From the sequence record MH359124: DNA of 64,000 nucleotides; one strand, 5' to 3'. Below are positions 47,289 to 48,829 of the stretch, one piece after another. Position numbers and translations under genes: made by a program. The stretch comes from Escherichia phage SF. Within the stretch, counting starts at the first letter, position 1; every line of letters starts with the position of its first letter. Under the pieces are notes generated by a model, which saw nothing but the letters and a program-made list of their open reading frames with translations, ran no database searches and was not told where the DNA came from.

Positions 47289-47362
47289 GGCCCTGTAGCT
47301 CAACGGTTAGCAGCAGTCCCCTCATAAGGGAAAGGTTACCAGTTCGAATCTGGTCTGGGTCA
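47289..47362 (+). tRNA. tRNA with anticodon CAT (Met/Ile2 type)
   Basis: Manual cloverleaf: acceptor GGCCCTG/CTGGGTC (one mismatch), D-arm GCTC-AACGGTTAG-CAGC, anticodon loop CTCATAA, T-arm ACCAG-TTCGAAT-CTGGT; 6 nt before the next tRNA. Stems are imperfect. Confidence 0.6.
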
Positions 47363-47368
47363 TATATT

Positions 47369-47445
<77 letters not shown>

Positions 47446-47463: not shown

Positions 47464-47808
47464 ATGAAAGGCAACATTTATCTGGTAGTTCATGATTTAA
47501 CGTTTTATTTTAACGAATATGATACAGTTATTTCTCATCGATTGATTAATTCGCTGTATCAGCATGCCGATTACATCTATGTTCAAAATGAATTTGGTCA
47601 TTGGAAGTTCATTAAAAATCGTTCTGGGTTAACTAGTTTTGAATACTTTGACCGTAAAGACCTTTTAAACGAAATCCCATTGCAACATCGGTTCCAGAAA
47701 CGTGAATCATTATATTATTGCCGCCATATACCAAACGCCGAATGTGTTAATGAAGCGATTAATCTATGGCGTCGGCGTCGAGAGCAAATTGATGATATGC
47801 CAAAATAA
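47464..47808 (+). CDS. hypothetical protein
   Basis: ATG 47464 with strong RBS GAGGAA; 114 aa; the track ORF start at 47416 lies inside tRNA-Arg. Confidence 0.6.
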   Translation: MKGNIYLVVHDLTFYFNEYDTVISHRLINSLYQHADYIYVQNEFGHWKFIKNRSGLTSFEYFDRKDLLNEIPLQHRFQKRESLYYCRHIPNAECVNEAINLWRRRREQIDDMPK

Positions 47809-47959
47809 GAAGCCGGGTCGCTACCGGTAAGTCGTCGGACTGATGTTCCCTGCGTAAGGACTGGTCTTAAATAAATCTTTATGATTTGTTAATATCCCCT
47901 TACATCACAGCAGAAACGGCGCACAGAATTATCGATTCGAGGAAATATCTTTGCCGTAA

Positions 47960-48150
47960 GCCGAGTAGCGTTTTTGACGGAACGTTCGGATATGGTCGAG
48001 ATATGGCCTTTTAAAAATATTGAGTAGCGTCAACTGCTTAATAACCGGGTTCGAATCCCGGCGTTTCGTACAAACACTTGCCTTAGCAGGTGGAACCCCG
48101 ACAAGGTTGCCGCAAGGCATAGCCCCTTCCGAAAGGTTGGGGCTTTTTGG
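47960..48150 (+). ncRNA. candidate small stable RNA with tRNA-like T-arm and terminator (possibly analogous to T4 rnaC/rnaD)
   Basis: 385-bp ORF-free stretch next to the tRNAs; tRNA-like T-arm CCGGG-TTCGAAT-CCCGG (48045..48061) and pairing 7-nt acceptor-like strands; GC hairpin plus T-run at 48121..48148. Boundaries approximate. Confidence 0.35.
48121..48148 (+). terminator. rho-independent terminator (AGCCCC...GGGGCT plus TTTTT)
   Basis: agccccttccgaaaggttggggcttttt at the end of the ORF-free RNA region. Confidence 0.65.
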
Positions 48151-48193
48151 CATAATAATAAATAGATAAGTTAATTAACTTAGGAAAAGCAAA

Positions 48194-48658
48194 ATGAAAT
48201 CATACGCCGAATTTTTGACTGAACAATCTAGTTCAGATGTAAAAGCCGCTGCGATTGCAGCAATTCAAGCAGGTAAATATTCTTACAAAGACGCCTCTGA
48301 TGAAGAACGTTTCCGTTTTATTAGAGATTTTAAAGCCGAAGGTTTTACTAATGCTAATACTGTTAGCCGAGTTTTTAAAAGCCTAGCTGCATCAGGTGAA
48401 TTGTTCCAGAAAGCTACAGGTAAAGCACCTGCGCCAAAAGCGGACCCTAAAGCCGCTCAAGAAAAAAATATCGCCAAAGGAATTATTTCTAAGTATGAAG
48501 CAATTCTTAAAGAGCTTTTAGTAATCAAAACAGAAGGCCAGAAACTGGCACGAGCACATAGCTTCAAAGATAATCCTCACGCTCATAGCCTTGAGTATGT
48601 TGAAGATATCCAAAAACTTATTAAAGACCGTATCTGGTCTGCTAAACAAATTAAATAA
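48194..48658 (+). CDS. internal-protein-like (CTS variant MKSYAEFLTE), 154 aa
   Basis: CTS-like N-terminus; flanked by near-identical terminator hairpins. Confidence 0.7.
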   Translation: MKSYAEFLTEQSSSDVKAAAIAAIQAGKYSYKDASDEERFRFIRDFKAEGFTNANTVSRVFKSLAASGELFQKATGKAPAPKADPKAAQEKNIAKGIISKYEAILKELLVIKTEGQKLARAHSFKDNPHAHSLEYVEDIQKLIKDRIWSAKQIK

Positions 48659-48664
48659 TAGAAT

Positions 48665-48691
48665 GCCCCTTCCTTACGGTTGGGGCTTTTT
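48665..48691 (+). terminator. rho-independent terminator after IP gene 48194, near-copy of 48121..48148
   Basis: gccccttccttacggttggggcttttt. Confidence 0.65.
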
Positions 48692-48829
48692 GGTATCTAG
48701 GCCTTTCCGGGAATCTCTAGGCATCATTTAGTTTATACCCTTTATAATAATATATTATCCTACCTTTTAATTGCCTCTCTCTGCCCTAGAATTCCCCGGA
48801 ACTTTTTAAAAATTTTTTTTCACAAAACT

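Follow-up and report, generated by a model that had tools for sequence, protein, structure and literature searches.

The region examined here (47809-48193, + strand) lies in a 64,000-nt stretch of the genome of Escherichia phage SF (sequence record MH359124), hereafter called the window. Judged from its sequence, it is almost certainly the 3' end of the phage transfer RNA (tRNA) operon, where orthologues of the T4 small stable RNAs rnaD and rnaC stand before a conserved trailer and the terminator of the operon. The feature is a rediscovery of these two known RNAs. They are also called species 2 (rnaD) and species 1 (rnaC), and they have been known for about 50 years, since the 1970s, when species 1 RNA was reportedly sequenced by Paddock and Abelson. 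The initial annotation, made from the window alone, had proposed a single stable tRNA-like RNA of the T4 rnaC/rnaD kind beside the tRNA genes. The kind was correctly recognised, as the region is orthologous to both T4 RNAs; the number was not, as the 385 bp hold two RNAs and a conserved trailer. The following layout was obtained from a three-way alignment of the window, T4 and phage ATK47, with coordinates carried over from the T4 annotation.

47805..47925, + strand: rnaD (T4 species 2 RNA) orthologue, placed by alignment to T4 rnaD
47926..47931, + strand: 6-nt spacer GAATTA between rnaD and rnaC, the counterpart of the T4 inter-RNA spacer in the alignments
47932..48070, + strand: rnaC (T4 species 1 RNA) orthologue, 139 nt, tRNA-like, placed by alignment, covariance model and folding z-score
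48071..48120, + strand: 3' trailer of the operon with two to three small hairpins, placed by the trailer alignment
48121..48148, + strand: intrinsic terminator of the tRNA/stable-RNA operon, a hairpin followed by T5

The stretch around the region matches about 800 T4-type phage records. Mosigvirus (RB69-like) phages, among them BEU50, a20 and SA79RD, match best (98%), and the phage is itself a Mosigvirus, an RB69-like member of the T4-type phages. Over 352 nt, the region shares 91.5% identity with T4. Identity amounts to 98.6% for rnaC, 91.6% for the trailer and terminator (48071-48153) and 85.1% for rnaD, compared with 74-86% for the flanking coding DNA. The window copy of rnaC differs from T4 rnaC (NC_000866 70908..71046, minus strand) by two substitutions over its full length (137/139 nt identical); both copies lie between rnaD and the operon terminator and are predicted to fold alike. 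The rnaD match also covers the full length of T4 rnaD (NC_000866 71171..71053, minus strand), directly upstream of rnaC. The annotation of ATK47, 'ncRNA rnaC; small stable RNA', coincides exactly with the position of rnaC. Under the match, RB3, T4T, RB5 and others carry annotations of both RNAs, and GiZh is also cited for annotation.

Covariation supports a tRNA-like fold of rnaC, which consists of an acceptor/T-arm minihelix and of a long hairpin and a 10-bp hairpin that replace the D and anticodon arms. Its elements are listed below.

47933..47939, + strand: 5' strand of the acceptor-like stem, CGAUUCG, paired with 48062-48068 (helix 1)
47940..48009, + strand: long hairpin P2, about 26 bp with bulges and an apical hexaloop UUGACG at 47974-47979 (helices 2-6)
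48010..48017, + strand: A-rich single-stranded joiner UUUAAAAA, unpaired in the minimum free energy (MFE) and consensus structures, with a conserved AAAAAU core
48018..48043, + strand: hairpin P3, 10 bp, with hexaloop CGUCAA at 48028-48033 (helix 8)
48045..48061, + strand: T-arm with a 5-bp stem and loop UUCGAAU (helix 9), separated from P3 by one unpaired nucleotide
48062..48070, + strand: 3' strand of the acceptor-like stem, CGUUUCG, with a UA tail, followed by a conserved CAA

Homologues of rnaC were collected from seven genera (Tequatrovirus, Mosigvirus, Gaprivervirus, Karamvirus, Moonvirus, Kanagawavirus and Marfavirus) and from IMG/VR and metagenome contigs. The RNAalifold consensus of a 12-sequence alignment (A3) has 22 of its 40 pairs compensated. 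A covariance model (R1) built from 12 homologues scores 150.7 bits on rnaC and has no other match in the window; it was used to align 37 rnaC copies, 27 of them distinct (alignment A4). Standard pairs fill 98.1% of the A4 cells, and both sides have changed in 26 of 45 pairs. When the register was shifted, pairing fell to 38-50%, and none of 500 shuffles reached the observed values. The window copy folds with a z-score of -4.55, none of 200 shuffles being as stable, and its MFE structure on its own is the consensus structure. The covariance analysis with related phages that the initial annotation had suggested has thus supported a tRNA-like fold with 27 distinct homologues from seven genera.

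The support is spread over most of the fold. Both-side changes were found in 15 of the 20 pairs of P2 (helices 2-6), where pairing is kept despite the divergent sequences of the Kosakonia, Karamvirus PG7-type and Marfavirus versions, and in 8 of the 9 pairs of P3. The acceptor stem has 7 positions, with an invariant tandem U.U in the middle, and helix 1 is 100% paired among the 27 homologues; pair 4/139 is A-U in 12 sequences and G-C in 15. The T-arm had already been recognised as CCGGG, TTCGAAT and CCCGG at 48045-48049, 48050-48056 and 48057-48061, and it is confirmed as a 5-bp stem with a canonical 7-nt loop. Its stem contains one covarying pair (G-C, U-A or A-U), and its loop never changes at positions 54-58 (UUCRA) but does at 59-60, which is the pattern of genuine tRNAs. 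The loops and joiners of rnaC are invariant across the seven genera. The 3' flank (A4 columns 142-146, window 48069-48073) reads G-UACAA in six genera and G-UCCAA in all Marfavirus copies, and Marfavirus is the sole lineage in A4 with a tRNA-like NCCA end encoded after rnaC.

The acceptor stem differs from the one first proposed, in which CGGAACG (47978-47984) was paired with CGTTTCG (48062-48068). The coordinates were right and the two segments can pair (7 bp, one G.U), but the pairing is not conserved. Only 86.8% of the cells pair, there are 0 compensatory changes, and 25 cells are broken, with 13/27 at one position; this pairing was therefore rejected. CGGAACG belongs to the apical stem of P2, as its 3' strand, and the partner of CGTTTCG is the 5' end of rnaC at 47933-47939. 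The intervening stretch of about 60 nt had been described as not folding into a D or anticodon arm. Such arms are indeed absent, but the stretch does fold, as half of P2 and the 10-bp P3, both of which are supported by covariation.

The hexaloops of P2 and P3 are complementary to each other. UUGACG (47974-47979) is the exact reverse complement of CGUCAA (48028-48033) at 6/6 positions, and both loops are directly bordered by their closing pairs and do not vary in six genera. The Marfavirus lineage has UUGGCG and CGCCAA instead, with A-U replaced by G-C in a compensatory change, and the loop-loop helix (helix 7) is 100% paired. A one-sided loop change was found in none of the rnaC set. These complementary and co-changing hexaloops suggest, rather than prove, a kissing-loop contact, which may be intramolecular or may link two molecules. 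The contact is only suggestive because it comprises one perfect 6-nt complementarity and one covarying event. Intramolecular kissing seems geometrically feasible through a fold-back at the 4-nt bulge of P2; the fold-back would close because P2 below the bulge spans about 25 steps, compared with about 22 for the upper P2, the kissing helix and P3 together. As in the human immunodeficiency virus (HIV) TAR-TAR* and ColE1 RNA I-RNA II kissing complexes, whose hexaloops or heptaloops pair throughout, the loops (6 nt in rnaC) are fully Watson-Crick complementary. However, rnaC carries both loops in one 139-nt RNA, and the predicted contact needs either a sharp bend at the P2 bulge or dimerisation. 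No description of a kissing contact in rnaC was found in the searchable literature.

Compared with canonical tRNAs (RF00005), rnaC has in common a 7-position acceptor stacked on a 5-bp T stem, a UUCRANN T-loop and a slot in tRNA arrays. The T-arm has G53-C61 and U54, U55, C56, R57 and A58, and the acceptor on which it is stacked contains two invariant U.U mismatches. P3 stands just 1 nt before the T stem, like the variable arm of class II tRNAs. However, rnaC is 139 nt long, carries a hairpin of 70 nt and a hexaloop-capped stem of 10 bp in place of the D-arm and the 7-nt anticodon loop, and has no encoded CCA in most copies. An acceptor/T-arm minihelix on a non-tRNA body, probably handled by tRNA-processing and tRNA-modification enzymes, is also found in the tRNA-like domain (TLD) of transfer-messenger RNA (tmRNA) and in the bacterial Y-RNA-like YrlA. 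rnaC differs from tmRNA in lacking a tag open reading frame (ORF) and pseudoknots, and no tmRNA was detected by ARAGORN or matched in Rfam. It differs from YrlA in its body architecture, and the sole Rfam match to YrlA (47334-47394) falls on real tRNAs and not on rnaC.

rnaD is predicted to fold into two hairpins, a plausible structure, though one with weaker support than the rnaC fold.

47812-47828, + strand: predicted 5' hairpin H1 of rnaD, with a closing pair that is A-U, G-C or G-U among the homologues
47831-47924, + strand: predicted long irregular hairpin H2 of rnaD, with an apical part that varies between phages

Among 20 distinct rnaD homologues, about 48 nt at the 5' end and about 30 nt at the 3' end are near-invariant, and the apex exists in three to four unrelated sequence versions, each of which folds as a hairpin. 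RNAalifold gave 33 pairs, 7 of which are compensated. T4 rnaD has near-identical 5' 48 nt and 3' 30 nt and the same two-hairpin architecture. The window copy differs from it in the apical sequence of the long hairpin, in its 3' CACA where T4 reads CACCA, and in its 5' end, which overlaps a stop codon, whereas T4 rnaD follows tRNA-Arg. RNA-RNA duplex prediction, which ignores intramolecular structure, placed a duplex between rnaD and the trailer above 97% of shuffles, which we judged unconvincing; the other duplexes among rnaD, rnaC and the trailer were indistinguishable from shuffles by this method.

The trailer (48071-48120) is better conserved than rnaD, and its first 48 nt or so after rnaC are almost invariant in Tequatrovirus, Mosigvirus, Gaprivervirus and Dhakavirus. 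This conservation possibly reflects a processing determinant or a third small RNA, about 80 nt long and ending at the terminator; such an RNA would co-migrate with tRNAs and so could have been overlooked earlier. The strong terminator noted initially is real. Its hairpin (48121-48143; AGCCCC UU CC GAAA GG UU GGGGCU) is GC-rich, has a free energy of -15.6 kcal/mol and is followed by a U run (T5 at 48144-48148) at the end of the transcription unit, as in an intrinsic terminator. Its internal UU/UU mismatch explains why a simple terminator scan did not detect it. The stem shows a compensatory C-G to G-C change in Dhakavirus. Transcription of the T4 tRNA cluster terminates after the species I gene and yields a precursor of about 1.75 kb that contains eight tRNAs along with species I and II (PMC2330249).

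Each of the two RNAs is found without the other. In Karamvirus, Moonvirus, Kanagawavirus and Marfavirus, rnaC is present without rnaD; in the first two, it lies 5-8 nt from an upstream tRNA-Trp or tRNA-Met and equally close to a downstream tRNA-Gly, a tRNA-like spacing. In the Dhakavirus phages VR5 (L008, ~1619), C6 (L009) and IME08 (L043), rnaD is directly followed by the trailer, and rnaC is precisely missing. At this junction, 1-10 nt separate GCGCACC of rnaD from AACACTTGCC of the trailer, which looks like the clean gain or loss of a 146-nt rnaC cassette. Providencia phage PSTCR6 (L044, 802-933) carries an rnaD homologue between tRNA-Arg and tRNA-Ile, with neither rnaC nor the trailer nearby; a gene for a GIY-YIG-type homing endonuclease lies just upstream of this rnaD, comparable to segB in T4. 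Because each RNA occurs alone and among tRNA genes, rnaC and rnaD are independent cassettes that travel with tRNA genes.

The family appears to be confined to T4-type enterobacterial phages because searches of cellular genomes were negative: the T-arm/acceptor motif was not found in any of 185,579 scanned genomes of bacteria and archaea, and a blastn search of 5,426 E. coli genomes with the region gave no match. The exact T-arm and acceptor pattern was found only on T4-type phage contigs in IMG/VR (two scans) and in metagenomes (one scan). A loose gapped pattern hit 120 mostly unrelated loci, where the covariance model found ordinary tRNAs only, at 20 bits or less. Rfam contains no family for rnaC and none for rnaD. 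In the roughly 800 records with the element, it is mostly unannotated, and in others it is wrongly labelled as a hypothetical protein, a terminator or 'tRNA-OTHER'. Inconsistent rnaC annotations in public records occur at L002 (2345-2371), L007 (1532-1660), L020 (1517-1654) and L006 (1547-1642). The SA79RD record has a 'terminator' on the T-arm of rnaC, the G9062 record has 'tRNA-OTHER' over rnaC, and coding sequences (CDS) are placed over rnaC in antisense in Kosakonia phage 305 and in sense in VAC36.

RNAC and RNAD are late RNAs in T4, as seen by RNA-seq and northern blot (PMC9697503). The literature and what is known of T4 suggest that the host tRNA-processing machinery would cut both RNAs from a polycistronic tRNA precursor, with RNase P acting at the 5' end of rnaC and endonuclease cleavage and 3' exonuclease trimming elsewhere. 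The spacer at 47926..47931 would presumably be trimmed once the 5' end of rnaC has been cut, and by analogy with T4 both RNAs would build up as stable species late in infection. The modularity of rnaC and rnaD fits release by this machinery.

With regard to function, we tentatively propose, as the likeliest mode of action, that rnaC is a tRNA mimic that acts as a decoy or sponge and not as a translation adaptor, and that rnaD acts separately on host-specific fitness. The acceptor/T-arm half of rnaC would engage a tRNA-recognising protein, which might be an enzyme of the phage or one that serves processing, modification or defence in the host. A rigid body would be formed by P2 and P3 in their kissing arrangement, and it would not be decodable because the sole anticodon-like loop is paired. 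With regard to rnaD, the T4-like phage BW1 gained virulence on host ECOR34, from 0.17 to 0.98, through one convergent single-nucleotide polymorphism (SNP) in the rnaD region (PMC12685909). Because one SNP makes a T4-like phage virulent on semi-permissive E. coli, at least rnaD matters in a host-specific manner, which hints at a counter-defence or defence-trigger role more than at a pure processing by-product. A bolder and rather doubtful reading is that rnaC represents a distinct, uncatalogued class of tRNA mimics whose body is built by a kissing-loop contact, within one molecule or in a dimer, instead of the D and anticodon arms, and which together with rnaD and the trailer serves host-specific counter-defence or the hijacking of tRNA metabolism; if true, it would account for the rescue of the T4-like phage by the rnaD SNP. 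The comparative model provides mutable handles on the function of both RNAs, namely the fold, the candidate kissing loop, the independent mobility in tRNA arrays and the ultra-conserved trailer.

Several points weigh against the proposed fold and decoy function. Helix 2 (AGG/CCU) and most acceptor-stem positions of rnaC never vary and hence lend no covariation support, and the loop-loop covariation is a single evolutionary event in the Marfavirus lineage. The 3' end of rnaC encodes UACA and not CCA (UCCA in Marfavirus); aminoacylation is therefore disfavoured, and some tRNA-mimic scenarios are weakened. The blastn search of E. coli genomes found no match to host DNA, which also speaks against the putative decoy role. 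T4 tRNA-region deletions are viable in laboratory hosts; any role of rnaC or rnaD would therefore be conditional. Accumulation as discrete RNAs (about 140 nt for rnaC and 120 nt for rnaD) was shown in T4, and in this phage it would be expected by analogy. The literature search found no functional study of rnaC or rnaD, and the roles of RNAC and RNAD are given as unknown in published accounts (PMC3014915; PMC12685909; PMC9697503).

The strongest rival of the decoy proposal, although an improbable one, is that rnaC and rnaD are cis-acting processing or stability modules without a function in trans. The RNAs would then accumulate only as structured by-products, which offer defined sites of entry to RNase P, RNase E and RNase III while shielding the precursor at its 3' end. 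Their location at the 3' end of the operon before the terminator and the RNase P-type minihelix of rnaC suit such modules, but rnaC stands in the middle of the array in Karamvirus and Moonvirus, and the two RNAs move independently. Biochemical background also agrees with a processing role: T4 species 1 RNA is a substrate of RNase III in vitro, its dimeric precursor p2Sp1 is a processing intermediate that is cut by RNase P and other endonucleases, and the RNAs are dispensable in laboratory hosts. However, an rnaD point mutation alters host-specific virulence, the 98.6% identity of rnaC between T4 and Mosigvirus stands against 74-86% in neighbouring genes, and the invariance of the loops and joiners in seven genera goes far beyond the needs of a processing spacer.

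As for the hexaloops, it is very unlikely that TTGACG and CGTCAA form an inverted repeat at the DNA level, such as half-sites for a dimeric DNA-binding protein whose co-evolution would mimic loop covariation. The symmetric change to TTGGCG and CGCCAA would suit a palindromic protein site, and the covariation is a single event. However, the hexamers are 48 bp apart, each is exactly the loop of a hairpin with an independently covarying stem, and the element is a known abundant RNA.

It is extremely unlikely that rnaC is a degenerate or unusual functional tRNA (class II, tRNA-Sec-like or with an insertion) that becomes aminoacylated and takes part in translation. Its T-arm is canonical and its acceptor stem has 7 positions, but it has neither a D-arm nor a 7-nt anticodon loop, and the sole candidate hexaloop is complementary to another loop of rnaC. 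ARAGORN and Rfam, which the initial annotation had recommended running, returned only the two upstream tRNAs at gathering thresholds and nothing within the region; there is no ARAGORN cloverleaf in 47805-48153 and no RF00005 match even at E = 10. The best weak Rfam match in the region is tRNA-Sec (RF01852, 47977-48069), which scores 16.6 bits (E = 5.2) where the gathering threshold is 47, and the rest is noise. The tRNA-Sec identity was rejected, as the score is below threshold and the alignment relies on the acceptor pairing already discarded from the covariation data. The same non-conserved pairing underlies a 96-nt 'tRNA-Phe' that ARAGORN calls within the Pet-CM3-4 copy of rnaC, and ARAGORN is silent on the window copy. 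One record annotates 'tRNA-OTHER' under the match, and the Marfavirus copies encode a 3' UCCA, but most copies have UACA and not NCCA.

A small protein encoded in the region or in part of it is hardly credible. The region contains a 74-aa ATG ORF on the minus strand (47929-48153) and two plus-strand ORFs of 42 and 49 aa, and many GenBank records annotate a 'hypothetical protein' here, with several CDS under the match; however, the plus-strand ORFs start with TTG, the antisense frame of the window has a stop in T4 and most others, substitutions are compensatory within RNA helices, and in Karamvirus and Moonvirus the tRNA genes 5-8 nt away leave no space for an ORF. The protein-coding reading was rejected because no frame is open throughout the 27 distinct rnaC homologues, in agreement with the earlier remark that the region has no plausible plus-strand ORF.

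Three further features lie upstream of rnaD.

47289..47362, + strand: tRNA with anticodon CAU (ARAGORN, Rfam)
47369..47445, + strand: tRNA-Arg-UCU (ARAGORN, Rfam)
47464..47808, + strand: 114-aa ORF, RB69ORF150c-like, phrog_3355, between tRNA-Arg and rnaD

Compared with the T4 context of rnaC, the window has a tRNA set of only two, and the phrog_3355 ORF splits tRNA-Arg from rnaD. The stop codon of this ORF overlaps the first bases of rnaD. The insertion is also present in T2 and U115 and is absent in T4, where tRNA-Arg abuts rnaD. Because the ORF intervenes, the 5' end of rnaD could not be made by 3' processing of tRNA-Arg in the ORF-bearing phages. Pfam and PHROGs searches with the three neighbouring ORFs returned only families without known function.

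The CAU tRNA is called tRNA-Met (CAT) by ARAGORN and is 96% identical to T4 tRNA-Ile (CAU, Ile after lysidine modification); it is labelled tRNA-Ile in some relatives and tRNA-Met in others. The tRNA-Arg (UCU) of the window has no blastn match to T4 tRNA-Arg (UCU), though both occupy the same slot before rnaD. It seems that an isoacceptor gene in this slot was replaced by a non-orthologous one.

Downstream of the region, the 32-nt terminator is duplicated. The copies at 48122-48153 (loop GAAA) and 48665-48696 (loop UUAC) have the same stem, and the 511 bp between them carry an ORF (48194-48658) of phrog_2280, a family without assigned function. Because homology to T4 halts at the first terminator copy and restarts at the second, the 511 bp resemble a cassette inserted into the terminator.

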